From NCBI GenBank assembly GCA_963726455.1, contig CAVSCK010000004.1:416001-480000 (forward strand): 64,000 bases of DNA, written 5' to 3'. This DNA is from an uncultured bacterium (GTDB taxonomy: Bacteria; Zixibacteria; MSB-5A5; CAIYYT01). Shown piece after piece: positions 33,659 to 55,339 of this stretch; position 1 is the first letter of the stretch, and the number at the start of each line of letters is the position of its first letter. A program made the translations under genes and the position numbers. The notes below the pieces were generated by a model. It was not told the DNA's origin. It searched no databases and saw nothing but the letters and a program-made list of their open reading frames with translations.

Positions 33659-33668
33659 AGCGCCGACA

Positions 33669-35013: not shown

Positions 35014-35138
35014 ATCCTCGAAATCTCAGATAATGTAATGAACCGATCCGCTCGGCACACTCGAATATAAGGTCATCACAGGTGAATAAAGTAATCTTTT
35101 CGCCCCGCGCTGGCAACTGAGCGTTTCAGCGGCATATC

Positions 35139-35500: not shown

Positions 35501-38500
35501 TTACTTACACCCTTCACACGGCTGTGGGCCACTCGAGAAAATATACTGGATCAGATAGACGACGTCGGAGATGTCAACCGACTGGTCGCAATTGGCATCA
35601 CCGGACGCTACCGGTGACGGTGCCGGCCCGCCTGAAAAGATGTACTGAATCAGATAGACGGCATCGGAGATGTCGACTGCGGCATCAGCATTGGCATTAC
35701 CACAGAGATAGTTCAAGAGATAAGCTGCAAACGTCCGGGAGTAAATTCCCGGAGTTCCGCTTGTAACCGGACGGATGCGCCAGTAATACACCGAATCAGG
35801 CCCCAGCGGCTGCGGAATCTGGTATAGGGGAGAGGTTAGACCAGTCACACTGAAGATCGGCGATCGGAAGTCATAGTAACGATCCAACTGGAACTCATAG
35901 CTATCGGCTGTCAGTCCTTTGCTTGCCAAACCACTCCAGTTGAAGGTCGGTTGGGGATTGGCGGTGGGGTGTCCATTCGCAGGGTAGATCGATGATACCG
36001 GTTGCACCTGATAGTAGAAGACGAGACTGTCGCCCGGAGCCGGGGTCGGATAGTTCCGAAAGGCACAGTTGGCGGCGGTGCCGTCAATGCGGATGCCGGC
36101 GCTAAAACGGGCATCGCCGGGGATATTCGCCCGCGAGGTAATCACCACCTGATACTCGCCATATTGCAGATTGTAGTCGTAGGCGCTTTCGTCCAACACG
36201 CCGTTGTCGTCGGCATCGCTGCGCCAGTAGGCCGAGCCAGCCACGGTGCGCAGAAGTCGGGAGATCACCAACCCGAGAGGGTTCTCAACTCGCAGCGTCA
36301 CGTTGTTGTAGCCGGTAGTCACCATCTCGTCGGGAAGAATCGGATCTTCGGGAATCTCGCTCACGGCCAGCAATATGGGATTGCCCTCCTGCCCGCCGAT
36401 CACGAAGTCGGGCGCGCCATTACGGTCGACATCGGCGCTGATCAGCGCATACAGCGGACTCGTGCCGCTGCCCAGGGCGATACTCACCGGTGCCGCGAAG
36501 CTACCGGCACCGATGTTAACGCTGACCAATAAGGAGCGCGTGGTGGCATTGACCAGACTGATATCCAGGTCGCCATCCTTGTCAACATCCGCCAATGCTA
36601 AATTGAGCGCCGTGCCAACGATGCGAAGCGTGTCGCTGCTACCAACGCCGCCACTGCCGTTGCCCAGTGCAATGGTCACGACGCTGGTGTCATTCGTCCC
36701 GACCGTGTTGCCGGTCACGGTCACAAAATCGGAGTTGCCATCATGGTTCAAGTCCATACCGGCGACGATACTGGAGAAATCGTGCGCTAGATAACCAATG
36801 CGCAGCGCCGCCGAGCGCGTCATATTGCCGCTGCCGTTGTTCACATAGACTACTGCCGAATCACCTGAGGTGACAACGATGTCATCCGTCCCATTGCGGT
36901 CAAAGTCGCCGACTTCGACCGCGTCAAACGAGAATGGTAGAGTCATCGAAGTCGGGAAGCTTCCGCTGCCGTCCCCAAAGAGAATCTTGTTCTCGCTGAC
37001 CACGGCATCCAGATACGCATCGCCATTGAAGTACCCGGTGGCGATCGATGGAAAGACGCCACTGCGCTCAGTGTTCGAGCCCCAGCTTGATGAAAGACTT
37101 ACGGTCTGCGAGTCAATGCTGAAAGTGCGATTGCCGTTGTTGAGCAGAAGATAGACCTTCCCCGGCGTGTGAGCGACAATATCCAACAGGGAATCACCGT
37201 CGACGAAATCGACAGCCAATGCGGCCTTGGTCACCTTCAGGTAATTGCGCGGTGTCTCCAAAGTGCCGTCTGCCTTGCCATAAGCAATGTACAGACTATC
37301 CGACGTGTTGCCGGTATAGACCACATCCGCATAGTTGTCACCGTCAATGTCGGCCTGCCTGACATAAAAGACATCGGCCGTGTCGGGGGTCGGCGTGATC
37401 AGATATTCCTGAGATAATACCTCGACACTGATGTTATCGAGCCAGGCATCGGCAGTGACGGTTGTATAGGCGGCAAATCCCAGTTCCTGCAATTGATTAG
37501 GGACTATACTGGCATCGCTGACAACAGCATCGCAGACGACACTCCCGTCAGCGATCTTGACCGATTTGAATTGCAGTTGACCATCCCAGATCGTGACGGT
37601 ATTGCGATAGGCGGTATAGTCCACCGGGTATGCCTGTGTATAAAGAGGGTTATCCGGCGGATGTCCGCAATCATCAAAAATCCTTACGTCTGGCTGTCCC
37701 GGGCGCCAAATGCCGATCCCTACTCCCACAGTCACATGACAAGTACCCATCAGAAGATGTATACTGGTGCTCATTCCAGGATTGCTGTACGCAACATTGC
37801 CATCCCATTGCAGCTTGAATCCAATGGCGCTTCCCGACGGCGGTGGTGGAACCGTCCCCGTTCTTACTAGCTCCCAGTAGGCGTCGGTGTGATAAGCGTT
37901 AAGCTGGCCGTTCTGCAAGCCACCTGATCCATTGTGCTGGACTAGCTGCCACCCGGCAGGTACCTGGTTGTCATTTAGATCATAGGACTCGTTGCTGAAG
38001 TAGTTCTGTCCCGGCGGGTAGAAGCTTAGTCTGGATACAAACGCGTCGAAGCCACCATTGTAGCTCCCGTCGTACGCGCCCTGAGTTGTGGGGAAATGAG
38101 CAGATGTCGTGTAACCTGTCACATAAGCATTGCCACCGCCATCGACTGCAATAGCAGTAGCTTCATCGTGGCTTTCCCCGCCGAGGTAAGTGCTGTAGAT
38201 CAGGCTGCTCCCGGATGCGGAGAGCTTGGTGGCAAAAACATCAGCGGTGTCTCGATCAGTTTGGTAAGAGTTCAAAGTAGGAAAATCAGTTGACCAAGTT
38301 ACACCACCTAGTAATACGTTGCCACTGCTATCGAGAGCGACACCGTACGCAGCATCGTCGCCATTTCCACCAAGGTAAGTACAGTAGTTCAGCGTAGTGC
38401 CTGTCGAGTTCAATTGAGCCACGAACACATCTGCGCAACCCTGAAACGTTTGGTAGGGATTTTGAGTAGGGAAATTGGTTGATCGGGTATAGCCCGTCAC

Positions 38501-40129
38501 ATAAGCGTTGCCGCTGCCGTCGACTTCTATATCGTGGCCTGCATCGGCACTGTCTCCTCCAAGATAGGTGCTATAAACCAGCGCGTTTCCAGTTACACTC
38601 ATCTTGGTCACGAAAACATCAGTGGCGCCTTGGTCAGATTGAAGCGGATTTTCGGTCGGAAAGTCGACCGAGCCTGTGTGGCCAGTCACAAATGCGCTGC
38701 CACCCTGAACTGCAACGCTGGTGCCCCAATCGTAGCTGCTGCCACCAAGGTAGGTACAGTAATTCAGTGCGCTACCGCTTGGACTCATCTTGATGACATA
38801 TGCATCACCGTTGCCCCCGTAAGTTTGATAAGGATTCTCAGTCGGCAAGTCGGCTGAGAACGTAAGGCCCGTCACATAGGCACTGCCGCTCTCGTCTATA
38901 GCGATACTGCTGGGAGAGTCATCATCAGTTCCGCCAACATAAGTACTGTAAAGCATCGCATTGCCGGCGCTGTTTAATTTTGTAACTGCAACGTCGTAAA
39001 TGCCTTGGAATGTCTGGTATGGGTCCTGGATCGGGAAGTCGGTCGAATTGGTTCCGCTCGCTATGTAAACACATCCTAACCTGTCTACGGCTATACCCCT
39101 TCCCCCATCGCTGCCACTTCCCCCAATGTAAGTACTGTAAATTAGGCCGTCATTAGAACTGCTCAGTTTGGTAACGAATGCATCCGGACCTCCTTGGTCT
39201 GTCTGATAAGGATATTGGCCCGGGTAATTAGTGGACGTCGTATAACCTGTCAAGTATACTTGATTGATACTGTCAACTGCCACAGCACTGCTAGCATCGA
39301 ACCCGCTTCCGCCAAGATAAGTGCTGTAAGACAAAACAACTGACTGCGTCCCCAACGCCTGCCGACTTGAGGCTTGAGATCTGAATCCAATCGTCTTTTC
39401 CTCTGCCAGTGAGAGAGTAGCCGTGCCCGACAAATCACCATCCGCGGGGGCCTTGACAGCAGCCACCATGTCACCCCATTTCGTCCGCAGAATCATTCTG
39501 CCATCCGCATCAATTAAATTCTGTTCCGCTCCCTCGTATTCAACCTTGACCAGCGCCATATCCGCCCCCGGATTTGCGACAAACTCGTACGCTGCCTGAC
39601 CGTTACCGTCGCCGGAGTATTTCAGGTCGATTCCCGGATAGATGTCTTTGAGCGTGATCGACTCGTAGTTGGGCACGTCAGTGTGCCACTTGGCAGGGTC
39701 ATTGCCGATGAAGTAGTTGCACTTGTACTCCAACTCCCCTTCGGCGACAACCTCTGGATTCGGATTCGCCCCATTGAATCTGGCGATCAACACCAGCTGC
39801 TCGATGCTGTCCGGCTCCATTTCATTCCCGCGTCCCATGTCATTCCCGCGCAGGCGGGAATCCAGTCCTGCCACAGGGTCTTTGCCATTCCTGTCGTTAG
39901 ATCGGGTGAACTGATAAGTCACCCCGTCTTTTGTGAACCACATCGTGGCGCCGCCGGCGTTGGCGCGGAACAGCACTCGGCTATCCCACTGGCCCATGTT
40001 CTTCGTGAAAGTCAACGGCGTCTGGTTCAGTTGCTGAATCGTGGAGGAGCCCGGCGAACTAGCTGCCAACAGAGTGAGCTGTATCAACATCAACAAGACC
40101 AACAGGGTCAGGGCGTTTTTGCAGAACAC
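35501..40129 (-). CDS. Large secreted protein: SBBP repeats, central beta domain, FG-GAP/VCBS repeats, dockerin
   Basis: GTG at 40129 with GGAGG RBS, signal peptide, YSTYLGG repeats, DxDGDxxxD FG-GAP repeats, VYYWRIRP, ends GPQPCEGCK. Confidence 0.87.
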   Translation of the reverse strand: MFCKNALTLLVLLMLIQLTLLAASSPGSSTIQQLNQTPLTFTKNMGQWDSRVLFRANAGGATMWFTKDGVTYQFTRSNDRNGKDPVAGLDSRLRGNDMGRGNEMEPDSIEQLVLIARFNGANPNPEVVAEGELEYKCNYFIGNDPAKWHTDVPNYESITLKDIYPGIDLKYSGDGNGQAAYEFVANPGADMALVKVEYEGAEQNLIDADGRMILRTKWGDMVAAVKAPADGDLSGTATLSLAEEKTIGFRSQASSRQALGTQSVVLSYSTYLGGSGFDASSAVAVDSINQVYLTGYTTSTNYPGQYPYQTDQGGPDAFVTKLSSSNDGLIYSTYIGGSGSDGGRGIAVDRLGCVYIASGTNSTDFPIQDPYQTFQGIYDVAVTKLNSAGNAMLYSTYVGGTDDDSPSSIAIDESGSAYVTGLTFSADLPTENPYQTYGGNGDAYVIKMSPSGSALNYCTYLGGSSYDWGTSVAVQGGSAFVTGHTGSVDFPTENPLQSDQGATDVFVTKMSVTGNALVYSTYLGGDSADAGHDIEVDGSGNAYVTGYTRSTNFPTQNPYQTFQGCADVFVAQLNSTGTTLNYCTYLGGNGDDAAYGVALDSSGNVLLGGVTWSTDFPTLNSYQTDRDTADVFATKLSASGSSLIYSTYLGGESHDEATAIAVDGGGNAYVTGYTTSAHFPTTQGAYDGSYNGGFDAFVSRLSFYPPGQNYFSNESYDLNDNQVPAGWQLVQHNGSGGLQNGQLNAYHTDAYWELVRTGTVPPPPSGSAIGFKLQWDGNVAYSNPGMSTSIHLLMGTCHVTVGVGIGIWRPGQPDVRIFDDCGHPPDNPLYTQAYPVDYTAYRNTVTIWDGQLQFKSVKIADGSVVCDAVVSDASIVPNQLQELGFAAYTTVTADAWLDNISVEVLSQEYLITPTPDTADVFYVRQADIDGDNYADVVYTGNTSDSLYIAYGKADGTLETPRNYLKVTKAALAVDFVDGDSLLDIVAHTPGKVYLLLNNGNRTFSIDSQTVSLSSSWGSNTERSGVFPSIATGYFNGDAYLDAVVSENKILFGDGSGSFPTSMTLPFSFDAVEVGDFDRNGTDDIVVTSGDSAVVYVNNGSGNMTRSAALRIGYLAHDFSSIVAGMDLNHDGNSDFVTVTGNTVGTNDTSVVTIALGNGSGGVGSSDTLRIVGTALNLALADVDKDGDLDISLVNATTRSLLVSVNIGAGSFAAPVSIALGSGTSPLYALISADVDRNGAPDFVIGGQEGNPILLAVSEIPEDPILPDEMVTTGYNNVTLRVENPLGLVISRLLRTVAGSAYWRSDADDNGVLDESAYDYNLQYGEYQVVITSRANIPGDARFSAGIRIDGTAANCAFRNYPTPAPGDSLVFYYQVQPVSSIYPANGHPTANPQPTFNWSGLASKGLTADSYEFQLDRYYDFRSPIFSVTGLTSPLYQIPQPLGPDSVYYWRIRPVTSGTPGIYSRTFAAYLLNYLCGNANADAAVDISDAVYLIQYIFSGGPAPSPVASGDANCDQSVDISDVVYLIQYIFSSGPQPCEGCK
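39822..39865. repeat. REP/dRS3-like palindrome embedded in-frame in a CDS
   Basis: GTCATTCCCGCGCAGGCGGGAATCCAG (ATTCCC-N8-GGGAAT) at 39839-39865, plus a partial copy TCATTCCCGCG at 39822. Encodes LDSRLRGND. Confidence 0.75.
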
Positions 40130-40512
40130 GATTGCCTCCCTAAGATGCGAACGTGAGACGTTGCTATGTTTTGTCAGATCGTAAGATAGCACGATTAGAC
40201 CAGTTTGTCCAGCGAATTCATGCCCTCGGCACTTGCTGCCCTCCGGCGGTAAGCCGCCGTCTGCCTTGGCGATGAGTCGCCCGATTGCCCGCGTAAGCAG
40301 CAAGAGTATCACCGGCTCAGAAGAACGATGTGGTCCAGTCGCAAGAGGGTGAAGGTGGTTTGAACCGCACGACTAGTTCCCAGCCGTCCCGGGGCCGATT
40401 GCATCGCACCGTTATTGAACTTGTTCTCTGTCCGGCATTCTGTAAATTGATCATGACTGAAAGAGTACGGTCCCCGAGACCAGCAGATCACTCGAATCGA
40501 AGAGGGCAGAGT

Positions 40513-41787
40513 ATGGACGAGCACATAGATGAACATCTCGAACTAAAACGGGCGGTTGCGGAACTCAAAATTCTGAATGAAGTCAGCGTGGCAATCAGCG
40601 GAGCGATAGGGGTTGACGCTGTCACAAACCTGATTGTCAAGAAGTGCGTCGAGCACACCGGCGCCGAGCAGGGGGCTATCTGGCTGTTGGACCGCATGGA
40701 CAAGACAGCGGCTCCCAAAACCTTCCTGAGAGTCATGGATTCCGATCCCACTTCGATCCCCTTTAAGGTCGGCGCAAGTTTGACGGGATGGGTCACCAAG
40801 AATCGCGAACCCCTGATCGTAAATGACGTCGCCAGTGACAGAAGATTCGTGGACCTGGCTGGAGATTATTCCGGTCTTCACTGCCTGTTGGCCGTGCCGC
40901 TCCAGCTCAAAGATACTCTCGTCGGTGTACTTTGCCTATTGAACAAAGCCGGCGGTCAGGGATTCTCAAGTGATGACGCCCGGTTGCTGACTATTGTGGC
41001 GACGCAATCGGCCCAGACCATCGAAAATGCACGACTTTATGACGATGAACGCAGACTTCGATCCCTGGAGGAGGACCTGCGAACAGCGCGTCTGATTCAG
41101 TATTCCCTCCTGCCGCGTGAGAACCCGCAAGCGAACCACTTCGATATTGCCGGACTCTATGAACCGGCACAGATGATCGGCGGAGACTATTTCGATTTTA
41201 TCCCTATCGACAAAGATCACCTCGGAATTGCCATTGCCGACGTGTCTGGAAAAGGCACATCCGCGGCGCTACTGATGGCTAACTTGCAGTCCTGTCTGCG
41301 GGGACAGGCGATTCTTAACCAGAGTCCGAAAGAGACGATTAACAACATCAACTTCATACTGTCTCGATTCCTGATTTCCGGACGATTCATCACACTCATT
41401 TATGGCGTTTTGGATGTTCGTCGGAGCATTTTCACTTATGTCAATGCGGGACACTGCTACCCGTTTCTGACGGCCAAAGGGCGAATAGTGGAGCTGGAAG
41501 CGGGCGGAATCATCCTGGGCTTTTCTTCTGATTCTAAATACTCGGAAACTGAAGTTCCCCTTCAGGCAGGTGAGTCGATATTACTTTACACGGATGGCAT
41601 TACCGAGGCTGCCAACGCTTCAGGGGAGCTTTATGGCGAATCTCGCCTTCTTAACCTGGTGAGAGCAAATCGGACGCTATCCTCCGCTGAACTCGTGCGC
41701 CTGATCAAGGATTCTGTGGTGTGCTTTCAGGAAGAAGAACCGCAGAGCGATGATATCACGCTGGTTGCATTGAGAAATCCTTTGTAA
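40513..41787 (+). CDS. GAF-PP2C/SpoIIE phosphatase (RsbU-like)
   Basis: GAF domain (LLAVPL...VGVLCLLNK, ENARLY), IGGDYFD, ADVSGKG, NAGH, YTDGITEA, DDITLV. Start inferred at ATG 40513. Confidence 0.9.
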   Translation: MDEHIDEHLELKRAVAELKILNEVSVAISGAIGVDAVTNLIVKKCVEHTGAEQGAIWLLDRMDKTAAPKTFLRVMDSDPTSIPFKVGASLTGWVTKNREPLIVNDVASDRRFVDLAGDYSGLHCLLAVPLQLKDTLVGVLCLLNKAGGQGFSSDDARLLTIVATQSAQTIENARLYDDERRLRSLEEDLRTARLIQYSLLPRENPQANHFDIAGLYEPAQMIGGDYFDFIPIDKDHLGIAIADVSGKGTSAALLMANLQSCLRGQAILNQSPKETINNINFILSRFLISGRFITLIYGVLDVRRSIFTYVNAGHCYPFLTAKGRIVELEAGGIILGFSSDSKYSETEVPLQAGESILLYTDGITEAANASGELYGESRLLNLVRANRTLSSAELVRLIKDSVVCFQEEEPQSDDITLVALRNPL

Positions 41788-41989
41788 GGGAACCGGTTCC
41801 CGCAATCTTCGGTAAGAACGCCGGCGGACAAACGCGGAAGACGATTGGGTCGCGCTGGCAGCCGGGCTGAGGCAACCTTATCGCATTTTCCGCTTAACAA
41901 CGCAGTTTCCTTCTTGTTTGTCCGGCGTTGTCGATCTATTTTGTAAGCAGGGGATTTCGGCGTGTCCTTCGGAACGCGATCCGCGATGA

Positions 41990-44440
41990 ATGGAAGATAC
42001 CCAGACTGCATTTCGGGAAAACCGCATGTTTAGTATTGGATCTAATGTAGGCAGCTATCGAATCGTTAGACGACTTGGTGAAGGCGGAATGGGAGTCGTC
42101 TATGAGGCCGTCGATGAGCGACTTGATCGAACGGTTGCTCTCAAAGTAATTTCGGAAAAGTACGGTTGCGATCCGAAATACAGGGCAAGACTTTTCCACG
42201 AAGCCAAGAGCGCTGCCAAGATCAATACAGATCACGTTGTTAGGATTTGGGAATGCTCGGAATTCGAGGGCACTCCTTTCATTTCCTATGAGTACGCGCC
42301 GGGCCGCTGCCTGGACGAAGTGATGCAGAAACTCTCCTTCGATGAAAAGGTAAGAATCGCCCGCGAACTGGCAGAAGGTTTGCAGATTGCACATTCGCTT
42401 GGGGTCATCCATCGCGACTTGAAACCGGGAAACATCATTGTCTGCGACGGCGGTTCCATCAAGATTCTTGACTTCGGCCTGGCCAAAATCATTAACGCTG
42501 ATTCCGTTGACAGTCAGGGGAATATCGAGGGGACCCTTTTCTATATGTCTCCGGAGCAGATCTCAGGTGCAACGCAGACATCGTCCACCGATATTTATAG
42601 TTATGGCGTGATTCTATATGAGCTATTTACCGGCCACAAACCATTCGACGGCGAGTACTCCGCCGCCATCATTTACTCCATACTCCATGAGGATCCTGTA
42701 CCTCCCAGTGAACTAAATTCGTCGCTGCCGGAATGGGTCAATCCGCTAGTGCTGAGACTCCTGGCCAGAAATACCGCAGACCGCTTCCCAGACATGGGTT
42801 CGGTACTTGAATATCTTGATGCCACGCAGACAAGTCATGGCGCAGCCACCCGAATCGGTGCATACAAGACCCGCAAGCGAACGATAACGGTCACGCATCT
42901 CAGAAACCTCTCTGGTGATCCGTCGTGGGACTATTTCTGTGCAGGATTTACCGAGGATCTGATTCGTGAGATTTCGCTGCGTACTGACACCGTGGTGTCG
43001 GTTGAACCGGAGAGTTCGGGAGAACGAGAGATCGCGAGCATTTTCCGGAAGTGTCGATCAGATTATGTGCTCACAGGGACCCTGATGCGATGGCAAGAGG
43101 AGATCAAGCTCGGCCTAAGTGTCTATGGTGAGAACGGCGATAAGCTGATTTATGGCGAGCAGTTTCGCGGAGGGGTAAAGCAGTTGTTCGAACTGCTATC
43201 TCGCGCCGCCCGAAATGCCTCTGAGGCACTGGCCAAAGCCAGCGGCGCAGCTTTGGTCGATGTCGATCGCCTCCTGAATACGAATGTCCCTGCCTACGAT
43301 TTCTATCTGAAAGGCAGAAGCTATTACCATACCAGTAAACCAGAGGATTTGGAGTCTGCCATCAACATGTTCAACCGGGCGCTGGAGCTGGACCCGAATC
43401 TTGCGCTCGCGAAGACCGGGCTTTCCGATGTCCATGCGTTTCAGTACAATGCTTATTATGACCGCCGTCCTGAGAAGATCGAACTTGCGATTCAGGAGGC
43501 ACAACAGGCGCTGGCAATCGATTCCCTTCTTCCTGAAGCCCATCGTGCGTTAGGGCGGTGCTACATGTTTGTCGGGGACTTCGATAATGCCGAAAAATCA
43601 CTGATGAGATCTGTAGACATTGCTCCGAAGTTTGCCATGGGCTACCGATCGCTGGCCTGGCTCAAGGACATGGCGGGCGACGACGAGGCTGCCCTCGTCT
43701 GGGCCAAGAAGGCATTGGAATTGGCCCCTACCGATCTTGAGACGCTGTTGCTTCTGGGTCTGCTATATCTGGACATGCGCAAATTCACACTGGCAATGGC
43801 CACGCTTCAGCGCGCCGTGGAATTGGGTCCCGACTACGGCCGGGCCTATTACTATCTGGGCATTGTCTTCACGAAGCTAGGGGTACCGGACATCGCTGTC
43901 GAGAACTTGCAGTTGGCAATTAAGTACAAAGGAGATCCCAACAGCTACATTGACGCCGGATATGCTGATATGGTATTGCGAAACTATGGTCGCGCGAAGA
44001 CATTTTTCTGTGAATCACTCGAACGGGGCTATATGCCTTTTATCGCCCTCTACTTCCTCGGGCTGATCTGTCTAATTCAGGGCGACCAGGAGATGGCGAC
44101 GGGTTATTTTGAAGATTCTTCTCGCTCAGCAGAGGACTATCTCGCTCGCGACCCTACCAACTGTCACGTTGCAAGTTATCGTGCACTCGCGCTTGCCGCG
44201 AGCGGCAGAAAGACCGAAGCAATTGAGATACTGGAGAGGATGTCTAACAATCCCGCCTGCCAGGGGGATCTGCTACACAACGTCGCAAGATGTTACGCTC
44301 TTCTTGGCGATAAGGAGAAGGCCGAGCTATTCAAGACCAAAGCAATCGGGCACCATGCCGGGCCCACACTCAAGGAACTTGAGGGCGATCCTCACTTCCT
44401 GATTCACTTCAACTGCGGCGGCTTTCGTTCGCAGAATTAA
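41990..44440 (+). CDS. Hanks-type Ser/Thr kinase with TolB-N-like domain and TPRs
   Basis: LGEGGMG, VALK, HRDLKPGN, DFGLAK, YMSPEQ. NLSGDPSWDYFCAGFTEDLI, then TPRs. Start may be 42026. Confidence 0.92.
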   Translation: MEDTQTAFRENRMFSIGSNVGSYRIVRRLGEGGMGVVYEAVDERLDRTVALKVISEKYGCDPKYRARLFHEAKSAAKINTDHVVRIWECSEFEGTPFISYEYAPGRCLDEVMQKLSFDEKVRIARELAEGLQIAHSLGVIHRDLKPGNIIVCDGGSIKILDFGLAKIINADSVDSQGNIEGTLFYMSPEQISGATQTSSTDIYSYGVILYELFTGHKPFDGEYSAAIIYSILHEDPVPPSELNSSLPEWVNPLVLRLLARNTADRFPDMGSVLEYLDATQTSHGAATRIGAYKTRKRTITVTHLRNLSGDPSWDYFCAGFTEDLIREISLRTDTVVSVEPESSGEREIASIFRKCRSDYVLTGTLMRWQEEIKLGLSVYGENGDKLIYGEQFRGGVKQLFELLSRAARNASEALAKASGAALVDVDRLLNTNVPAYDFYLKGRSYYHTSKPEDLESAINMFNRALELDPNLALAKTGLSDVHAFQYNAYYDRRPEKIELAIQEAQQALAIDSLLPEAHRALGRCYMFVGDFDNAEKSLMRSVDIAPKFAMGYRSLAWLKDMAGDDEAALVWAKKALELAPTDLETLLLLGLLYLDMRKFTLAMATLQRAVELGPDYGRAYYYLGIVFTKLGVPDIAVENLQLAIKYKGDPNSYIDAGYADMVLRNYGRAKTFFCESLERGYMPFIALYFLGLICLIQGDQEMATGYFEDSSRSAEDYLARDPTNCHVASYRALALAASGRKTEAIEILERMSNNPACQGDLLHNVARCYALLGDKEKAELFKTKAIGHHAGPTLKELEGDPHFLIHFNCGGFRSQN

Positions 44441-44505
44441 CGATACGAAAAAACATAGCGTCTCCTTACCGACTTACCAGTAACGTAGCTCTAAACGACT
44501 TCCGC

Positions 44506-47163
44506 TTACTTACATGCTGCACAAGGCGCCGGACCACCGCTAAAGATGTAACTGATAATGTACACGGCATCCGAGATGTCAACGAAGCCGTCGCAGTTAG
44601 CATCGCCCACCACCTGGGGTATAGGCGCCGGACCGCCGGAGAAAATGTATGCAATCAGTGCGACTACGTCCGAGATATCGGTTGCGCCATCGCCGTTCGC
44701 ATCACCGCAGACTTGGGCTATCACATAGACTGCGTAGGGATGCGAATAGGGCGCGGCAACTCCACCCTGGAACGACCGCACGCGCCAATAAAACACCGAA
44801 TCAATGCCCAATGCCGATGTCGGTGTGTAAGTGGCAGTGGTTAAACCCCCGATATCGCAGATCGGCGCCCGAAAATCGAGATAGCGATCCAGTTGAAACT
44901 GAAAACTATCCGCCGCCATCGACTTCTGCGCGAGACCACTCCAGTTGAAGATCGGCCGCGCGGCCGGCAACGCCCGGCCATTGGCCGGATGTACCAAAGA
45001 GACCGGCTCCACATCATAATAGAATACCAGGCTGTCGCCCCGCGGAGGAATTCGATAACAATCCGCCAGATGCGCCGACGTCGTGCCGTCGATGCGGATC
45101 CCGACCTCGAACAGTGTGCCGTTCGAAGTGTCCGATCGCGGTTCGACAATTATGCGGTAGCCGCCATACTGCAAGTTATAATCGAAAGCCCGTTCATCCA
45201 ATGTGTCGTCGCCGTTAGCGTCCAACCGCCCGTAGGCCGAGCCGGCAACCGTCTGCAACGGTCTCGAGATAACAAGATTCAACGGGTTGACGATCCGCAA
45301 TGTTACGTTGCCGTAACCTGTGGTGACCATTTCGTCCGGTAGAATCGGATCGGCCGGCAGACCATTGATCGCCAAAACAATCGGGTTCCCTTGCTGTCCG
45401 CCGATCGCAAAGTCTGGTGCGCCGCTACGATCAAGATCCCCGGCAACCAGAGCGTATAGCGCACTCGTTCCGCTGCCCAAAGGAATGTTGGGCTGTGGAG
45501 TCAGATTCCCCAACCCATCGTTCTTGCAGATGACCAGTGCGCGCGTCTTTGCGTTGACAGCACTAACATCCAGGTCGCCGTCCTTTTCCACGTCGGACAA
45601 AGCCAGATTCAGCAGCGTCCCCGCGAATGCCAGCGTGTCACTGTTTGCGATCCCGCCGCTGCCATCACCCAGACATACCGTGACCACGCTGGTGTCATCG
45701 CCGAGAGTCGAATTGCCGGTGACCGCTACGAAATCACGTTTGCGGTCGCCGTTCAGATCGATGTCCGCTTTGACGGTCGCGAAGTCGAAGGCACGATAGC
45801 CAATTCGCACGGCGGCCGATCGCGTAAGATTGCCCGAACCGTCGTTCAGAAACATCTTGGCCGAGTCTCCGATCGTCGCCACAAAATCATCGTAGCCGTC
45901 ATTGTTGAAATCGGCTGCATCGACAGCGTCAAACGAGAACGTCAGAGTCGCGCTGGTCGGAAAAGCGCCTGTGCCGTTGCCATAGAGAATCTGGTTCTCG
46001 CTGACAATCAGATCCAGATAAGCATCGCGGTTGAAATAACCGGCTGCGATGGCCGGGAAGACCGTGCTGTTTAATGACCGAATCGCAGAGGAGGAATAGC
46101 TGACGGTTTGCGAATCGATAGCAAAATTGCGGGAGCCCTGGTTGAGCAGGATATAAATCTTGTCCGTTGTGTGGGCAACGATATCCAACAAAGAGTCACT
46201 GTCGACATAACCCACCGCCAGGGCCGCCTGTTTCACTTTCAGGTAGTTGCGCGGCGCCTCAAACGTGCCGTCGGACTTGCCATAGATCACGTAGAGGCTG
46301 TCATCGGTACGACCGGTGTAGACGATGTCCGCATAGTTGTCCTGATCCAAATCGGCCTGGCGCACATAGAAAACATCCACAGTGTCGGTGGTCGTGACGA
46401 CATCAAATCCCGGTTCGCACTTGACATATGCCGGGCGGATAGGACCTCCCGGGACAGTTGAGAACATGAAATCACCGGCGGGACCGACGAAGGCAGAGTC
46501 AAGATCGATAAACTGGGTGGGACTTCCGGCCAGAATACGCGCGTAAAGCGTGAAGAGCAACCCGTTATTCTGAGGATTAATTGGTTGCGATGCCATTATG
46601 TCAATCCAGCCAACCAAGACTTTATTGCTCGCCGGTACAAATTTCTTCTGAAGCGATCCCCCGGGAATAATTGAGCCAGTCGAACTCACACTCGTGATCT
46701 CGATGTCATTCGAAGCATAATGAAACCCAAGCGAAAACCCATTCAATCCCACCGTGTTATCAATGTATATTGGAATTGCCACGGAGTCGTTGTTTCCTGA
46801 ATACGGCCTGCAACCCATCCTTACCTTATTGCCGGCGACGGTTCCGTAATTGCAGCCCACGGGGACCGAGCACCCGGAGGGGGCCGGCCCGCCGCCGAAA
46901 ATGTATTTGCACAAGTATGCCGCGTCGGCCACGTTAACTCCGCAATCATTGTTGGCATTGCCCGACTCCAACGGGATTGGAGTCGAACCACCGCCAAAGA
47001 TATAATTGATGAGGTAGACTGCATCAGATATGTCGATGGTTCCGCTGGCATTCGCATCCCCGCAGGTCCAGGGCAGACGAGGATTCTGGCCCTTCAGCTC
47101 TACAGGTCTAGAGATGCAGAAGCCCGCGCAAATTGTCACGATCAGCATTAGTCTCTTAATCAT
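44506..47163 (-). CDS. Secreted protein: N-terminal dockerin, cohesin-like domain, FG-GAP repeats, C-terminal dockerin
   Basis: Signal peptide. [45 protein letters not shown]...ITSVS...LLFTLYARI (cohesin-like). FG-GAP repeats. Ends [10 protein letters not shown]. Confidence 0.83.
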   Translation of the reverse strand: MIKRLMLIVTICAGFCISRPVELKGQNPRLPWTCGDANASGTIDISDAVYLINYIFGGGSTPIPLESGNANNDCGVNVADAAYLCKYIFGGGPAPSGCSVPVGCNYGTVAGNKVRMGCRPYSGNNDSVAIPIYIDNTVGLNGFSLGFHYASNDIEITSVSSTGSIIPGGSLQKKFVPASNKVLVGWIDIMASQPINPQNNGLLFTLYARILAGSPTQFIDLDSAFVGPAGDFMFSTVPGGPIRPAYVKCEPGFDVVTTTDTVDVFYVRQADLDQDNYADIVYTGRTDDSLYVIYGKSDGTFEAPRNYLKVKQAALAVGYVDSDSLLDIVAHTTDKIYILLNQGSRNFAIDSQTVSYSSSAIRSLNSTVFPAIAAGYFNRDAYLDLIVSENQILYGNGTGAFPTSATLTFSFDAVDAADFNNDGYDDFVATIGDSAKMFLNDGSGNLTRSAAVRIGYRAFDFATVKADIDLNGDRKRDFVAVTGNSTLGDDTSVVTVCLGDGSGGIANSDTLAFAGTLLNLALSDVEKDGDLDVSAVNAKTRALVICKNDGLGNLTPQPNIPLGSGTSALYALVAGDLDRSGAPDFAIGGQQGNPIVLAINGLPADPILPDEMVTTGYGNVTLRIVNPLNLVISRPLQTVAGSAYGRLDANGDDTLDERAFDYNLQYGGYRIIVEPRSDTSNGTLFEVGIRIDGTTSAHLADCYRIPPRGDSLVFYYDVEPVSLVHPANGRALPAARPIFNWSGLAQKSMAADSFQFQLDRYLDFRAPICDIGGLTTATYTPTSALGIDSVFYWRVRSFQGGVAAPYSHPYAVYVIAQVCGDANGDGATDISDVVALIAYIFSGGPAPIPQVVGDANCDGFVDISDAVYIISYIFSGGPAPCAACK

Positions 47164-47375: not shown

Positions 47376-48431
47376 TCAAGTGTTATTGCGCCTGCGAGAG
47401 TCGTGTTGCGGGGATTCTTCCGCCCATTTGTCAAGCATGAATCGCTGCCAGAGGTCCTTGCTGCTGGAACGGAAGAAGGGCAGAATTGCCAGCCTACCCG
47501 TCTTGCCGATGCTCTTCTCCAGGTACTTCAGTTCCGCAAATTTCTCCACAAGTTGTGGCTCCGGAGAAACAGGCAAGCCGAACTCTCGCATGAGCAGTAT
47601 GCCTTTGACCTGTAAAGACAGCTCGAGTTGGAGTCGCACAAGACAAAGCATGTCCGCAACAACCTCACCTCGGAATCGGCTCTTTAATGATTCGAGGTAG
47701 GCACCGATCTTGGTCTGCGAGATATTGCCGCTACAGATCAGATCCAACAACTCCATGTCAGCATCCAAACCAATTCCCAGCCACTTCTGGGTGGCTTTCT
47801 CGCTCTTTTCGAACACGAAAATCACCAACAGAGGTAAGCAAATCAGCAGAATGACGGTCGATAACAGTGGGGAGATGAGAAAATTGTTATAGACGGCATG
47901 GACAAGGATTGCCAAGCACAGACCTGGAAGGAAAACAACAATTCTGTGGGTTTGGTGGCGATCTGACAGATACTTGGAAATCATCCCCAGTATCGCCGCC
48001 GTGCTTCCGTGCATGACCGCAGTGCCGAAGCCACGAACGACCCAAAGGAGGATGTTAGAATTCGTTAGGGCGTTCAGGTAATAGATGTTTTCGACAAGAG
48101 CAAATCCGGCGCCGACTGCAAAACCATAGATTGCCGCATCGACCAGAAATCCGATTCGCGTCTTTCGCAACAGATAGATGACATAAGCGGCCTTCAGTAG
48201 TTCCTCAGTCAGCGGTGCAATGTACGCTGCGAGATTGGACACGCTGAGAGAGAAAATCCGGGTCAGCCCGGTGTTGAGAAACAGGCCGACTACGGCAACA
48301 AGACAGCCTGCAAATATGGCCCTTGTTGCCGATCGAAGACTAACCAGCTTGTAGCTGTCGAGGAAGATCAGCACAGCCAGAAAAACAAACACGGGAACTA
48401 AACTGACGAATACTTTGATGAGCTCGGTCAT
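47376..48431 (-). CDS. prsW: PrsW-family glutamic intramembrane protease #2
   Basis: EELLK, FALVEN, GTAVMH, VHAVYN. 4-nt ATGA overlap with the upstream gene. Paralog of 32651-33658. Confidence 0.87.
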   Translation of the reverse strand: MTELIKVFVSLVPVFVFLAVLIFLDSYKLVSLRSATRAIFAGCLVAVVGLFLNTGLTRIFSLSVSNLAAYIAPLTEELLKAAYVIYLLRKTRIGFLVDAAIYGFAVGAGFALVENIYYLNALTNSNILLWVVRGFGTAVMHGSTAAILGMISKYLSDRHQTHRIVVFLPGLCLAILVHAVYNNFLISPLLSTVILLICLPLLVIFVFEKSEKATQKWLGIGLDADMELLDLICSGNISQTKIGAYLESLKSRFRGEVVADMLCLVRLQLELSLQVKGILLMREFGLPVSPEPQLVEKFAELKYLEKSIGKTGRLAILPFFRSSSKDLWQRFMLDKWAEESPQHDSRRRNNT

Positions 48432-51585: not shown

Positions 51586-53019
51586 CTACTTTTCCGTGAC
51601 CTCGTCAGCCTTGGTTCTGCTGAAATCCATATTTGCGACCGCCGCGCTGAATTCGGGATAGGCGGTAGCCCGGTTAAATTCCTGGACTGCCATTGCCCGG
51701 CTGAGCTCCTGATTTGCCAGGCACTTCGCAAATTGAGGTTGTGCCATCGCTCTGCTGAATTCTTGCGATGCAATCACCTGGGAAAAGGATTGATCTGCGA
51801 CCAAATTGCGAAAATCTCCTGAAGCAAATGCGCGGGAAAACTCCTGATCTGCAATTGCTCTGCGAAATTCGGGCACGGCCATGGCTTTGGCAAAATCCTG
51901 ATTAGCCCACAGCCTACTGAACTCCGGAGTCGCAATCAGACTGACGAACTGCGGATTCGCGGCCAGTCTGCTAAATTCGGGAACGGCAAGCAGTTTCGCG
52001 AAGTCCGGGTTCGCAGCCACTCGGCTCATGTCCGGGTTGGCAAGCAGCTTGGCAAAGTCCGGACTGGACGCCATACGGCTCAGTTCGGCTGTAGCAAGCA
52101 ACTTCGCAAAATCCTGGTTGGCTGCCAACCTGCCGAATTCCGGGTTCGCAAGTAACTTGGCAAAGTCAGGATTGGGAGCAAGCCGGCTCAACTCTGCATT
52201 GTTCGCCAATTTGGCGTAATCAGGAACGGCCGATAGTCTGCTCATATCGGCGCTGGCAACTATTTTCGCAAATTCGGGATCCCGAGCCAGTCTGCTGAAA
52301 TCAGGGTTCGCGAGCAGCTTGGCAAAGTCAGGGGCGAGCGCCATTTTGGCGAATTCCTGACGGGCAACAACCTTGGCGAAATCGGGGTCCGGAGTGAGTC
52401 TGGCAAATTCCGCGTTAGCCAGTAGAGCGGCAAACTCCGGATTGGCTGAGAGTCTCCCGAACTCCGGCGTTATGAGCAGCTTGGCAAAGGAAGGTTCAGC
52501 TGCTAACCTGCTAAATTCGGGATTCGCGGCGAATTTAGCAAAGTCCGGGTTAGCCGAAATGCGACTGAAATCATGATTGGAAAGGATTTTGGCGAAATCC
52601 GGATAGAGAGCAAATCTGCTGAAGTCCGCATTGGCCATGGCTTTTGCAATGTCTGGATTCGCGAAAGCACGACTGAAATCCTGATTTGCCAATGCCGCGC
52701 GAATGTCAGGATTGGCCATCAGCCGGCTGAATTCCGAACTAGCCGCCATAGTGCGAAAGTTCTCATCCTTGAGTAGCGCCAGGACCTTGTCGTTCTGAAG
52801 CAGTGCCTGTAGCTCGCTGTTGCCTAGTACGACATCCTTATCGCTCATCTGGTTAGTACGATACTTCTTTGCGGCGCCGATCGTTCCTTGACTGTCCGTT
52901 TCTGATGGTGGGAAGCCCGTTAGGGCAAAGTATGCGATCACTACTACCACGACTATTATCCCGCTAAAAAGGATCTTAGCCTTGCCGCTACCGAGAAAAG
53001 ACTTTCGTGGTTCTGCCAT
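51586..53019 (-). CDS. Membrane-anchored protein with 45 tandem 9-aa repeats (NPDFAKLLA / NPEFSRLAA)
   Basis: AGGAGG RBS, TM helix at about residues 16-33. Residues 67-471 are exactly 45 x 9 aa with no indels. Confidence 0.9.
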   Translation of the reverse strand: MAEPRKSFLGSGKAKILFSGIIVVVVVIAYFALTGFPPSETDSQGTIGAAKKYRTNQMSDKDVVLGNSELQALLQNDKVLALLKDENFRTMAASSEFSRLMANPDIRAALANQDFSRAFANPDIAKAMANADFSRFALYPDFAKILSNHDFSRISANPDFAKFAANPEFSRLAAEPSFAKLLITPEFGRLSANPEFAALLANAEFARLTPDPDFAKVVARQEFAKMALAPDFAKLLANPDFSRLARDPEFAKIVASADMSRLSAVPDYAKLANNAELSRLAPNPDFAKLLANPEFGRLAANQDFAKLLATAELSRMASSPDFAKLLANPDMSRVAANPDFAKLLAVPEFSRLAANPQFVSLIATPEFSRLWANQDFAKAMAVPEFRRAIADQEFSRAFASGDFRNLVADQSFSQVIASQEFSRAMAQPQFAKCLANQELSRAMAVQEFNRATAYPEFSAAVANMDFSRTKADEVTEK

Positions 53020-53081: not shown

Positions 53082-53108
53082 AAGTACAGTTCAGTTCTCT
53101 AAGAGTTG
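53082..53108 (-). promoter_or_regulatory. ECF-type promoter motif upstream of the repeat-protein operon
   Basis: CAACTCT-N13-TGTACTT, about 60 nt upstream of the ATG at 53019. Confidence 0.65.
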
Positions 53109-53147
53109 GTCAATCTTTCATTTCCTCCTCGCTCCATTGCCTTTTGA

Positions 53148-53936
53148 TCAGTGAGAGTGCTGTCTCGTATATAGAGTTTCCTCCCAAGAATCATCAGATG
53201 AACGAACGCGAAACTGCATTGCCGAGATATCATTGCTCTTGTCCTTGAAGAGGAGGAAATATTTCTCCTCCCCGTCCTGCGTAAGTCGGACTTGATTCTC
53301 GTTAATCTCCAATGTCTTGGGGACGTGACCTAGTTGTCTCATACCCTCAAGATCGAGATGTCGATTGTCAAAACTGATAGTCACCTCGACACCTCTGTTC
53401 GAAGTCAGATCTATCTCGGCGATGACAGTTCCCGTTGAATATTCTATCCTGACCGTGCCTTCAGCATTTCCGATTGTGAAATCTATCTGATCAGCAACCT
53501 GAACGCTGTCGACGGCGCCGCCCAGATAGATCGAACCAGCCAGACTGCGAATATTCCAAGGAGGGATTACTCCGATGCTGCCGACGAGCAGAGCAAATGA
53601 GAAGATGCCTACGACTATGCCCGCCAACAGGGAATAGGCATACTTGACATTTACCTTGAGGGCTAACGACCCGACGACGGACTCAGGAATGCCGCGATTC
53701 TTTCTCCCCGCGGATCCCTCAGCTCGAACCTGTCGCAAGACGGCGTGTTTCAGCTCCATGGGCGGATCTGCCTTTTGCTCCTGCGCCAACCATCGGAAGA
53801 GTTGGAGGAAACTGTCATATAGCATTTGCGCGTCAGGGTTTCGTCGGAGATACTCCTGCAACTTGAGACGTTGTCTGGGTTTGATCGTCCCATCAAGATA
53901 CTCACTCATAAGTCGAACATGTTTTTCGGAAGTCAT
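53148..53936 (-). CDS. Transmembrane anti-sigma factor #2
   Basis: LMSEYLDG...PDAQ...DPPMELKHAVLRQVR, one TM helix, periplasmic domain. Paralog of 33669-34445. Confidence 0.78.
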   Translation of the reverse strand: MTSEKHVRLMSEYLDGTIKPRQRLKLQEYLRRNPDAQMLYDSFLQLFRWLAQEQKADPPMELKHAVLRQVRAEGSAGRKNRGIPESVVGSLALKVNVKYAYSLLAGIVVGIFSFALLVGSIGVIPPWNIRSLAGSIYLGGAVDSVQVADQIDFTIGNAEGTVRIEYSTGTVIAEIDLTSNRGVEVTISFDNRHLDLEGMRQLGHVPKTLEINENQVRLTQDGEEKYFLLFKDKSNDISAMQFRVRSSDDSWEETLYTRQHSH

Positions 53937-54322
53937 CGGCCACCGTTCCCCTCTGTTTCACGGCTCGCTCAGCTAGCGTTTGGCGGTGAAGAGCCTTGAC
54001 TCGACGTTCTTCAAGAGAAATCTCAGTAAGTGAACAACCGTTTTGAGCGAGAAACCGTCGAAGTGCCTGACGAAATTCAGGACCTTCAGTTAGGTTGGCA
54101 GACCCCTCGCGCAATCCGGACGCCCTTACTTATTTCGTTGCCGACACGGTCTTCCTCCGGATATTTCGCCGCAGAGGCCCGGCCCTCGGCAAACTCTTGG
54201 CCTCCGATCAATCTCACCGGCGAGTTGACAGACGGTCTCCGTCATCCACCCAACATCTCAATTGACTTCAAATTGCCGTCAAGCCACTCCCTGATCATGA
54301 TGGGATCACCGTTGTCTGTCAT
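53933..54322 (-). pseudogene. Decayed ECF sigma factor
   Basis: Fragments in shifting frames: MTDNGDPIMIREWLDGNLKSIEML, VRLIGGQEFAE, VRHFDGFS, VESRLFTAKR*, KQRG. These match the intact sigma at 34438-34986 over about 390 bp versus 549 bp. Confidence 0.8.
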
Positions 54323-54349
54323 AATTACATTTGATCCCCCGAAAAGTTG
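54323..54349 (-). promoter_or_regulatory. ECF-type promoter motif abutting the pseudo-sigma ATG
   Basis: CAACTTT-N13-TGTAATT-ATG. Confidence 0.62.
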
Positions 54350-54648
54350 GTCGTCACATTTCTACGTGAACGCTTTGGTACCAACAGAGTAGCGAGTCTC
54401 AGGCAGGTCGGCTTATACCTTCCTGTCGTCGAACCGCGTAATCGCGCCTATCGCGTCGAATCTCCGCCAGTTCCGTCGAAGTCGATGACCCGAACAAACC
54501 GGGTCGCACAAAGAGCCCTCTTAAGCGAATTTTCGTTTTGCATGCCCCCGAATGCAACTCGTTCCTGATGGAAATTATAATAGGAGATGTGCTCTTGAAA
54601 TGCAAGGCGAATTCTGGCAAGAACCTTTTCTGTATTTGAATTCGAATC

Positions 54649-54933
54649 TTAGTCGATTTGAAAAACCTGAAGCAGGCCGGAAATCTGGAAGACGTTTCTG
54701 ACGTGTTTGTTCATGTTTGTGAGTTTTACAGTCTTTCCCAGCTTCTCCAATCTATTGTGAGTAGCCACCAGTACACTCAGCCCCGCGCTGGAAATGTAAT
54801 CCAGATTCGTCAGGTCTACCGTGAGGGAATCGTCGATAGTCTCAAATATTGGCAGCGCTCTACTAACTTGCGAGGCGTCGAATCTGCCCGAAAGAAAGAT
54901 TTCCTTCTTGTCAGTCACCTTAATGTCCAACAT
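54649..54933 (-). CDS. STAS anti-anti-sigma factor #2
   Basis: LSGRFDA, LDYISSAGL, VFQISGL. Confidence 0.9.
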   Translation of the reverse strand: MLDIKVTDKKEIFLSGRFDASQVSRALPIFETIDDSLTVDLTNLDYISSAGLSVLVATHNRLEKLGKTVKLTNMNKHVRNVFQISGLLQVFQID

Positions 54934-55339
54934 CGTTTTGCTCCAGGTGTTTGATCATGGTTATTGTGCTGGTGCGGTTAACATAATCATAATATACGTG
55001 ATCTACTATATTCCTGACCAGGTGCAAGCCCAATCCTCCCGCTTTTCTTTCTTGAACATCCCGGGCGTTATCCACTTCCTGCCACTTGGTTATGTCAAAT
55101 CGGTTGGAATCGGAATCAATCAGACGAATGGTCAAGTCATTTCCGCTCCTGACCAGGTCTATAAGGATGCCTGTCGAACCCATGGGATCATACTTGACGA
55201 GGTTCGTGAAGATCTCCTCGACTGCCAGGTTCACGGTATAAGCGACGTCTTGCAGCAACTCCTGCTGCAAGACGAAGTCCTGGATAAATTCGAAAATCTT
55301 CTCCAACGAATCGATCTGCCTGGGGAACACCTTCTCCAT
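54920..55339 (-). CDS. RsbW/SpoIIAB-like Ser kinase (HATPase_c_2)
   Basis: LAVEEIFTNLVKY, GGLGLHLVRNIVD. AGGAG RBS. Overlaps the STAS start. Confidence 0.88.
   Translation of the reverse strand: MEKVFPRQIDSLEKIFEFIQDFVLQQELLQDVAYTVNLAVEEIFTNLVKYDPMGSTGILIDLVRSGNDLTIRLIDSDSNRFDITKWQEVDNARDVQERKAGGLGLHLVRNIVDHVYYDYVNRTSTITMIKHLEQNDVGH

Follow-up and report, generated by a model that had tools for sequence, protein, structure and literature searches.

A 64,000-nucleotide stretch of the genome of an uncultured member of the Zixibacteria (positions 416,001 to 480,000 of contig CAVSCK010000004.1, assembly GCA_963726455.1; "the window" below means this whole stretch) encodes a 477-residue protein, P0001, that consists of a single transmembrane helix, a conserved juxtamembrane neck and 45 tandem units of nine residues. 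P0001 is probably the P990-binding component of a sigma-controlled envelope proteolysis cassette, P990 being a 990-residue protein encoded in the same cassette; a specific role as a substrate or decoy is possible but doubtful. Because the array co-occurs with P990 and the neck is predicted to dock there, P0001 is read as a periplasmic protein that sigma induces and that serves P990, and perhaps the PrsW-family protease encoded next to it, as a ligand or substrate. It would correspond to the extracytoplasmic half, encoded on its own, of an unnamed but widespread class of extracytoplasmic function (ECF) anti-sigma factors. The anatomy of P0001, its family, its fusion to anti-sigma-like domains in relatives, its gene context and its promoter motif were observed directly. 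Coordinates of all features are collected in Table 1.

The nine-residue array and its predicted fold

The initial annotation had proposed an open reading frame (ORF) of 477 amino acids with a transmembrane helix and a QGTIGAAKKYR segment, followed by exactly 45 × 9 residues without an indel; translation confirmed the former, and cutting the sequence into units together with autocorrelation confirmed the latter. The protein starts with MAEPRKSFLGSGKAK, continues with one hydrophobic helix and then enters the segment that holds QGTIGAAKKYR; its cytoplasmic tip is 15 residues long, with four K/R among residues 1 to 15. The topology is taken to be N-in/C-out because of the positive-inside rule and because a cytoplasmic anti-sigma-like domain precedes the transmembrane helix in fused relatives. 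P0001 would be anchored N-in in the inner membrane, with neck and array in the periplasm.

Residue autocorrelation reached 0.326 at lag 9 (z = 15.9) and 0.475 at lag 18 (z = 30.3; both against 500 shuffles), and lay below the shuffle mean at lags 7, 8, 10 and 11. The column consensus of the unit is N-P-[DE]-F-[SA]-[RK]-L-[LA]-A, with F at position 4 in 35 of 45 units, A at position 9 in 34 of 45, and a hydrophobic residue in phase at position 4 in every one of the 45. An 18-residue super-repeat, also claimed at the outset, is evident from the higher unit identity at lag 2 than at lag 1 (0.475 vs 0.326): from unit 7 to unit 36, odd-numbered units are of FAK type and even-numbered ones of FSR type, with few exceptions (e.g., unit 18). 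A register shift had been placed at unit 37, which holds only in part: past unit 36 the alternation mostly fades as SR-like units take over, yet units 41 and 42 return to the original register.

At the DNA level the copies are old and their codons nearly randomized, in agreement with the synonymous divergence first noted: nucleotide identity between units averages 48%, positions with the same residue share a codon in 37.5% of pairs (31% from random codon draws), two identical NPDFAKLLA units differ at 8 of 27 bases, and Tandem Repeats Finder detects in the gene only a 3.8-copy, 54-nucleotide (nt) array with 69% match. Two same-genus orthologues (524 and 527 amino acids [aa]) have 65% identity, 3 gap columns, a nonsynonymous divergence (dN) of 0.26 and a saturated synonymous divergence (dS), values that indicate purifying selection on the array, with individual units conserved in place. 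Together with the randomized codons, they support the earlier suggestion that selection acts on the protein.

AlphaFold2 (AF2), run with a 112-row alignment, predicted 45 helices of 6 to 8 (∼7) residues with ∼2-residue spacers (mean predicted local distance difference test score [pLDDT] 77.9; predicted template modeling score [pTM] 0.58; pLDDT ∼80 to 88 over residues 70 to 430); neck residues 35 to 66 alone showed no regular structure (pLDDT 43 to 56). The array is thus predicted to be one long α-solenoid of stacked two-turn helices, and the consensus suggests that units begin with a classical helix N-cap (N/S/D/T, then P, then D/E). This model and the N-in/C-out topology favor the periplasmic solenoid or rod that was one of two options raised initially. 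As predicted, tandem helical units make up one elongated domain, as in α-solenoids, and the best structural neighbors are helical-repeat proteins. Each unit is strongly amphipathic (hydrophobic moment 0.56 over residues 3 to 9), whereas over an 18-mer at 100 degrees the moment is only 0.107 and the faces cancel; a continuous amphipathic, apolipoprotein-like surface helix was rejected on this difference.

Foldseek returned no match of the P0001 model to the PDB at E ≤ 0.001 (best template modeling [TM] score 0.25), and the best Z in exhaustive structural alignment with VIA was 6.8, to designed helix-turn-helix-turn repeats and within noise for helical repeats; this lack of a structural match does not show that the array fold is new. 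With α-solenoids such as 8ugc FD15, 8g8i (designed helix-turn-helix-turn) and TAL effector/BurrH, P0001 is predicted to share stacked helical repeats and an elongated superhelix, but the matches are weak throughout (Foldseek TM ≤0.25, VIA Z ≤6.8), and the known units comprise 30 to 40 aa in two long helices whereas that of P0001 comprises 9 aa in one two-turn helix. A sequence search of the PDB with P0001 found only the B-domain repeats of coagulation factor V (7kve_B; phmmer E = 7.6 × 10−29), which are likewise tandem 9-aa units with P-D/E-[LF]-S. However, the B-domain is a region of an animal plasma protein without transmembrane helix, neck or common context, and homology was rejected in favor of convergence of short repeats. 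RTX nonapeptide repeats (consensus GGxGxDxUx) are Gly/Asp-rich, calcium-binding and fold into a β-roll; they were rejected as well, as there are 3 Gly in 405 repeat residues and the AF2 model is all-helical.

Family, gene cassette and promoter

Word-indexed homologue searches were nearly empty (three matches with the whole of P0001, one with residues 1 to 100). An exhaustive search of 1.84 billion representatives recovered 1167 representative proteins at E ≤ 0.001 and 382 at 10−10, most matches having the same N-terminal pattern: a transmembrane helix, "PP", G-T-I-G-A-A-x-[KR]-Y-x3-Q-x4-D-V, and Q-x-[FL]-L-Q-x-D. Across the 112-sequence alignment G45, G48 and Q75 are invariant, and A50, Q57, D62 and V63 are kept in at least 90% of rows. 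In 85 of 100 neck-bearing representatives (<700 aa, tail of ≥72 aa) the strongest reduced-alphabet period of the tail was 9, 18 or 27, and this period is kept while unit sequences vary greatly by lineage (xPxFAELAK, QDKNFRKAV, SDAFREALA, NPAFEQALA). Among 106 family proteins the tail after the neck has a median length of 210 aa, with extremes of 51 and 602 aa, and that of P0001 is the fifth longest.

An N-terminal extension of 60 to 110 aa was found on 44 of the 100 neck-bearing representatives. When 11 family proteins (nine extended, two stand-alone) were scanned against NCBIfam, the anti-sigma model NF052375 matched six of the nine extended ones, in each case below its threshold (E = 4.5 × 10−4 to 5.6 × 10−10). 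The placement of transmembrane helix, neck and array behind an anti-sigma-like N-domain in relatives indicates that neck plus array constitute the extracytoplasmic half of an anti-sigma factor family. P0001 itself is not an anti-sigma factor: only 15 residues precede its transmembrane helix, and the cytoplasmic N-terminal sigma-binding domain is absent. In this lineage neck and array are encoded apart, beside an anti-sigma factor whose ectodomain is of another kind. Names were looked up for 10 relatives, of which four are "hypothetical protein", one bears an evident misnomer (ALG13) and the rest have none; Atlas look-alikes of P0001 also lack names. Literature searches returned no description of the nine-residue array, the neck or the cassette, and the main text of the ECF re-classification paper (PMC7826278) has no mention of STAS, CAAX, RsbW or Ignavibacter and 0 occurrences of PrsW.

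In the window, P0001 lies in a cassette that runs from genes for an RsbW-like HATPase and an RsbV-like STAS protein, through a gap with a sigma remnant, to a separate anti-sigma-like protein, P0001, P990 and a PrsW-family protease (Table 1; the NCBIfam PrsW match of the last was below cut-off). The anti-sigma-like gene holds the same position as the anti-sigma genes of relatives. Cassette order is identical in seven related genomes, where an intact ECF sigma gene fills the gap, and the repeat gene is flanked by P990 and PrsW in 7 of 7 relatives examined. Scanning one genome per species gave 64 related loci, many of which end at contig edges, from metagenome-assembled genomes (MAGs) labeled Zixiibacteriota, Ignavibacteria/Bacteroidota, Calditrichota, KSB1, Acidobacteriota, Eisenbacteria and Latescibacterota. 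By tblastn with the window proteins, these loci contain P990 (57), sigma (55), STAS (50), PrsW (47), HATPase (45) and the poorly conserved anti-sigma (32); the cassette is conserved in at least six poorly studied phyla. The searches gave no match to a characterized family over the full length, and the gene context is strongly conserved, so that the initial annotation stands on both points. The repeat gene was found by strict pattern in 35 of the 64 loci; in 16 of these a separate anti-sigma gene lies between sigma and repeat gene, and in seven the form is fused, with the repeat gene beginning 6 to 39 nt past sigma and the neck at residue 103 to 136.

The repeat protein and P990 go together. 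Of 61 related genomes, 10 have P990 and 8 of those 10 also have a homologue of the repeat protein (two spurious rows set aside), and the two P990 genes without a repeat protein sit 641 and 832 nt from a contig end. Neither protein was found in three other genomes of the same genus; by this absence and the presence in 10 of 61 genomes, the cassette is accessory and patchy. PADLOC gave no match for six cassette proteins.

The sigma gene of these loci has the promoter CCAAC(T/C)T, spacer, TGTAnTT, with 16 nt separating CCAAC from TGTA. CCAAC-N16-TGTA stands at the sigma start in 53 of the 55 loci in which the sigma gene is intact, and in most of the sites listed the −10 element (TGTAnTT) directly abuts the sigma ATG, which suggests a leaderless sigma mRNA across several phyla. 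Of 62 assessable loci, 27 have the same motif upstream of the repeat gene as well, no more than 260 nt away; chance would give ∼0.02 copies per locus. Within the window it marks three cassette-related sites: P0001, the sigma remnant and a paralogous sigma gene (one mismatch). Since the repeat gene carries a copy of the cassette's ECF-sigma promoter, it is expected to be expressed upon sigma release. A one-mismatch copy of the motif also lies at 23012-23039 (-), ∼740 nt upstream of an 849-aa SBBP-repeat/dockerin-like ORF (19721-22270), and may be due to chance. Among the Acidobacteriota loci, five (L041, L046, L052, L056 and L057) have the motif ∼77 to 150 nt before the match to the transmembrane helix and neck, that part closely following sigma; the promoter may be internal there, or the anti-sigma gene separate and very short, in loci where ORF calls are unreliable. 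The strong terminator-like hairpin between the repeat gene and P990 could, to judge from its sequence, uncouple the expression levels of the two.

The cassette's own sigma gene has decayed to a pseudogene in this genome. Searching with the sigma proteins of six relatives (tblastn) recovered weak, shortened remnants at 53964-54361 (E = 2 × 10−5 to 0.088), with a body of ∼120 codons compared with ∼185 in relatives; the same six queries matched 34447-35016 with 45 to 53% identity. The latter match falls in a reduced paralogous cluster (Table 1), whose intact sigma gene lies 19 kb from the cassette and could supply it with a sigma factor. This cluster has neither repeat protein nor P990, and so sigma, anti-sigma and PrsW can occur together without them.

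P990, the predicted docking and the proposed role of P0001

P990 is 48 to 60% identical across phyla and has no Pfam family; typical signal-peptidase sites at the ends of its signal peptides point to secretion. H133, E134, H137 and E187 are invariant in 46 sequences. AF2 modeled it with high confidence (pLDDT 89.8, pTM 0.87) as an HExxH domain, a TolB-like propeller, linker helices and a C-terminal barrel, a POTRA domain being absent from the model; a profile search of the PDB with P990 found nothing. An uncharacterized "WD40-Omp85" subfamily with a TolB-like propeller was described by Heinz and Lithgow in 2014 (PMC4104836). P990 fits that description, in that an Omp85-type barrel follows a TolB-like propeller in place of POTRA and function is unassigned in both, and it may belong to the subfamily, the comparison being one of descriptions. 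As far as the account in PMC4104836 goes, P990 differs from the subfamily in its N-terminal HExxH domain and its fixed place in a sigma/anti-sigma/PrsW cassette.

Complexes were predicted from P990 residues 35 to 640 and P0001 residues 36 to 130, each with its own alignment. The three runs gave ipSAE values of 0.85, 0.77 and 0.80 (median 0.80), against 0.01 for the best of three controls, with a partner pLDDT of 64 to 66 and at least 90% of contacts in common. In calibration, 58 of 80 solved complexes came up to this mark, as did 2 of 110 mismatched pairs. The neck is thus predicted to dock onto P990. On the P0001 side the modeled interface comprises residues 45-68, 70-72, 74-78 and 81, that is, the conserved neck with the most conserved positions of the family; on the P990 side it comprises parts of the HExxH domain (52-63, 124-128 and 197-207), propeller blades (441-556) and linker (596-624). 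We know of no similar solved complex, which makes template memory unlikely; the docking still has the standing of model confidence alone.

Under the preferred reading, the ∼40-residue neck, unstructured alone, would dock into the cleft formed by HExxH domain, propeller and linker of P990, and sigma release would switch on the repeat gene through its own ECF promoter copy, as the sharing of the motif suggests. We infer that the cassette carries out proteolysis with feedback, running like the regulated proteolysis of sigma-W/RsiW/PrsW with P990 added as a periplasmic protease. P990 and/or PrsW would bind and cut the neck-plus-solenoid element. In the fused form, removal of neck and solenoid from the anti-sigma domain would free the sigma factor; in the detached form, as in P0001, the element would be induced by sigma, serve as a ligand or decoy substrate and exert feedback on these proteases.

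In Bacillus subtilis, sigma-W, RsiW and PrsW form a regulated intramembrane proteolysis system. The cassette resembles it in encoding together an ECF sigma factor, an anti-sigma factor that crosses the membrane once and has an extracytoplasmic domain, and a PrsW-family protease, and in the autoregulatory ECF promoter of its sigma gene. Unlike RsiW, the ectodomain here is a nine-residue helical array with a conserved neck, and the cassette adds an Omp85-type HExxH/propeller protein of 990 aa and an RsbW/RsbV-like pair, in diderm hosts. In this window, moreover, array and anti-sigma domain are encoded by separate genes and the sigma gene has decayed; PrsW is encoded with sigma and anti-sigma as in a PrsW-dependent cassette, but an intact cognate sigma is missing. 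On this reading the P0001 cassette would be a variant of ECF anti-sigma proteolysis built on an ectodomain fold and an Omp85 partner that are both uncharacterized.

Several points weigh against this reading. With a sigma pseudogene, the cassette may be decaying or may rely on the paralogue at 34438-34986. A search of its own genome for the promoter, allowing up to one mismatch, gave 11 sites compared with 6 for a control pattern, which makes single promoter sites weak evidence and rules out claiming a regulon larger than the three cassette sites. The 100 representatives used for the periodicity count were retrieved with the full repeat protein as query, which favors nine-residue arrays, and all relatives of P0001 come from uncultured MAGs or metagenomes. 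The calibration counts for ipSAE hold only roughly here, the complex tool having been calibrated on other alignments. Conservation of the P990 interface (0.654) did not exceed that of the rest of its soluble part (0.665; permutation P = 0.63). The main difficulty is geometric: the BamA-like barrel and signal-peptidase sites of P990 imply that it should hang from the outer membrane, and the neck begins only ∼9 residues past the inner-membrane helix; for the two to meet, PrsW may first have to release the ectodomain, or the periplasm may have to be narrow or the topology different.

Among the alternatives, the array might be a periplasmic client-binding sensor, in which STI1/DP-like mini-helices bind exposed hydrophobic segments (unfolded outer-membrane proteins, lipoproteins); in fused forms the client would trigger anti-sigma cleavage, and the detached form would hand clients to P990 as an Omp85-type protease. 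We consider this unlikely. STI1-HOP_DP (PF17830) matched P0001 with 65.7 bits (E = 3.4 × 10−18; gathering cut-off 29.1) and was listed in 14 of 40 homologues scanned (11 at or above cut-off; UBQLN1 in 3 of 40), Atlas look-alike clusters have STI1-HOP_DP or UBQLN1 on 10 to 33% of members, and P0001 shares with STI1/HOP DP and ubiquilin STI1 (PF23195) a short amphipathic helix motif in which the helix opens with D/N-P and hydrophobic residues stand 3 to 4 positions apart. The strong amphipathicity of each unit and the joining of an Omp85-like barrel to a protease-like domain in P990 would also suit such a sensor, and STI1 domains are presented as hydrophobic-groove client binders in PMC8010706 and PMC13083928. 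However, the whole 55-position model was not matched: P0001 has five stretches, the best covering positions 5 to 28, and homologues match ∼positions 1 to 30 only (one exception, 1 to 51), which argues for a short shared motif and not a domain. P0001 also has a strict 9-aa period and a continuous predicted solenoid of 45 helices instead of discrete five-helix domains, it is bacterial, membrane-anchored and by its predicted topology periplasmic, and units in some lineages lack P-x-F (e.g., QDKNFRKAV). The Foldseek and VIA rows for P0001 contained no STI1 structure, which does not exclude one, and no literature linking an STI1 domain with the bacterial periplasm was found. The match is best read as motif-level resemblance and not membership, much as the initial annotation had it in recognizing no named family and only a loose likeness to STI1/DP.

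A bolder form of the preferred reading would make the nine-residue single-helix unit a new class of natural α-solenoid which, with the neck, forms a trans-envelope signaling element: an inner-membrane anti-sigma factor, or its detached ectodomain, would be read by an outer-membrane Omp85-barrel metalloprotease, maybe threaded or processively degraded, converting outer-membrane or surface events to ECF sigma activity. This we hold to be quite unlikely.

It is highly unlikely that the array is an envelope-spanning tether or ruler, a rigid rod reaching from the inner membrane toward P990 and reporting the width or integrity of the envelope. One long 45-helix solenoid in the AF2 model, a partner with a BamA-like barrel and a repeat number kept between the same-genus orthologues (524 vs 527 aa, 3 gap columns) would be in line with this, but a fixed ruler would not vary as much as the tails of the 106 family proteins do (51 to 602 aa), the sequences read showed no conserved C-terminal motif, and the predicted contact to P990 is made by the membrane-proximal neck and not the distal end, though only residues 36 to 130 were offered.

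Export of the kind seen in two-partner secretion (TPS) is very improbable. Here the neck would dock as a TPS domain does on the POTRA of FhaC, and the array would be threaded to the surface as a sensor or adhesin. The conserved N-terminal docking segment ahead of a long repeat passenger and the BamA-like barrel (Table 1) invite the comparison, and PMC4104836 discusses PlpD-type Omp85 proteins, which carry a domain across the outer membrane. However, P0001 has an uncleaved inner-membrane anchor, to which fused forms add a cytoplasmic domain, and P990 lacks POTRA and has an invariant HExxH without a role in TPS transport.

The second option of the initial annotation, a polyprotein precursor cut to 9- or 18-residue peptides, is scarcely credible and the least supported reading: perfect 9-aa phasing and two protease-like genes directly downstream are offset by the use of the module as the ectodomain of anti-sigma factors, by units that vary widely across lineages with the period kept and yet are conserved position by position between orthologues, by a confident AF2 fold, and by the lack of a cleavage-site motif beside the units and of peptide maturation, modification or export families in a Pfam scan of 18 neighboring ORFs.

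Neighboring features and significance

TABLE 1 Features of P0001, its cassette, the paralogous cluster and P990 (positions in the window unless given as residues)
Feature	Position	Strand	Basis or remark
P0001 repeat-protein gene	51586..53019	(-)	ORF list and translation; 477 aa
Single N-terminal transmembrane helix, ∼residues 16-36, N-in/C-out	52912..52974	(-)	AF2 helix 19-33; K/R in residues 1-15; fused relatives
Juxtamembrane neck, residues 37-66, PP...GTIGAA-KKY-x3-Q-x4-DV; conservation on to ∼residue 81	52822..52911	(-)	112-sequence alignment, AF2, complex prediction
45 gap-free nonamer units, residues 67-471	51607..52821	(-)	Periodicity analysis and AF2 secondary structure; each unit one 7-residue helix (predicted)
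AGGAGG ribosome-binding site of P0001	53025-53030	(-)	Sequence
ECF-type promoter copy (CCAAC, 16 nt, TGTACTT), ∼60-90 nt upstream of P0001 ATG	53082..53109	(-)	Motif match
Terminator-like hairpin, 18 pairs, 10 G-C, 38 nt past P0001 stop codon	51509..51548	(-)	Consensus scan only
HATPase_c_2 (RsbW-like) gene, cassette head	54920-55339	(-)	Pfam
STAS (RsbV-like) gene	54649-54933	(-)	Pfam
713-nt gap with sigma remnant	53937-54648	(-)	ORF order
Cassette ECF sigma remnant: promoter 54323-54350, ATG 54322, in-frame stop after 26 codons	53964..54350	(-)	tblastn, frame translation, promoter match
Separate anti-sigma-like protein, 262 aa: N-domain, transmembrane helix, β-rich ectodomain	53148..53936	(-)	NCBIfam NF052375, E = 2.2 × 10−6, below cut-off
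P990, 990 aa	48428..51400	(-)	AF2, structure search, alignment
PrsW-family intramembrane protease; start overlaps P990 stop by 4 nt	47376..48431	(-)	Pfam PF13367, E = 6.5 × 10−24
Reduced paralogous cluster: STAS, sigma, anti-sigma, PrsW	32651-35423	(-)	Without repeat protein, without P990
Paralogous STAS	35139-35423	(-)	Reduced cluster
Paralogous intact ECF sigma	34438-34986	(-)	Reduced cluster; 45-53% identical to relatives' cassette sigma
Paralogous anti-sigma-like protein	33669-34469	(-)	Reduced cluster
PrsW-like protein of reduced cluster	32651-33658	(-)	Reduced cluster
P990 α/β HExxH domain	residues 37-312		AF2
P990 six-bladed propeller	residues 329-591		Nearest TolB 1c5k_A, Z 23.6, root mean square deviation (rmsd) 2.8 Å over 244 aa
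P990 short linker helices	between propeller and barrel		AF2
P990 C-terminal barrel			Aligns with barrel of Deinococcus radiodurans BamA 8xnb_B, Z 19.6, rmsd 4.2 Å over 291 aa

Between the two sigma clusters (35501-47163), large FG-GAP/SBBP/dockerin proteins are encoded at 35501-40312 and 44506-47163, together with a Ser/Thr kinase with TPRs (41990-44440) and a GAF-SpoIIE PP2C phosphatase (40330-41787) that could serve the RsbW/RsbV-like pair. Elsewhere in the window, ORF listings show tandem paralogues at 23284-26574 and 26668-29712 (+), of ∼1000 to 1100 aa, with TPR-like N-terminal halves and an identical C-terminal stretch of ∼70 residues.

Pairs of ECF sigma and anti-sigma factors are a major signaling device of bacteria, and to our knowledge the extracytoplasmic signal sensed by most anti-sigma factors is unknown. 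The cassette described here joins an anti-sigma ectodomain without precedent, predicted to be a helical solenoid of nine-residue units, to an Omp85-family protein with a protease-like domain, and the predicted docking of neck and P990 offers a concrete, mutable interface. The strictly phased array of mini-helices may also be of interest to repeat-protein design. If the docking is true, it would give a partner to an Omp85 subfamily that, by its 2014 description, had no assigned function, and it would provide a new route from the state of the outer membrane to a sigma factor.

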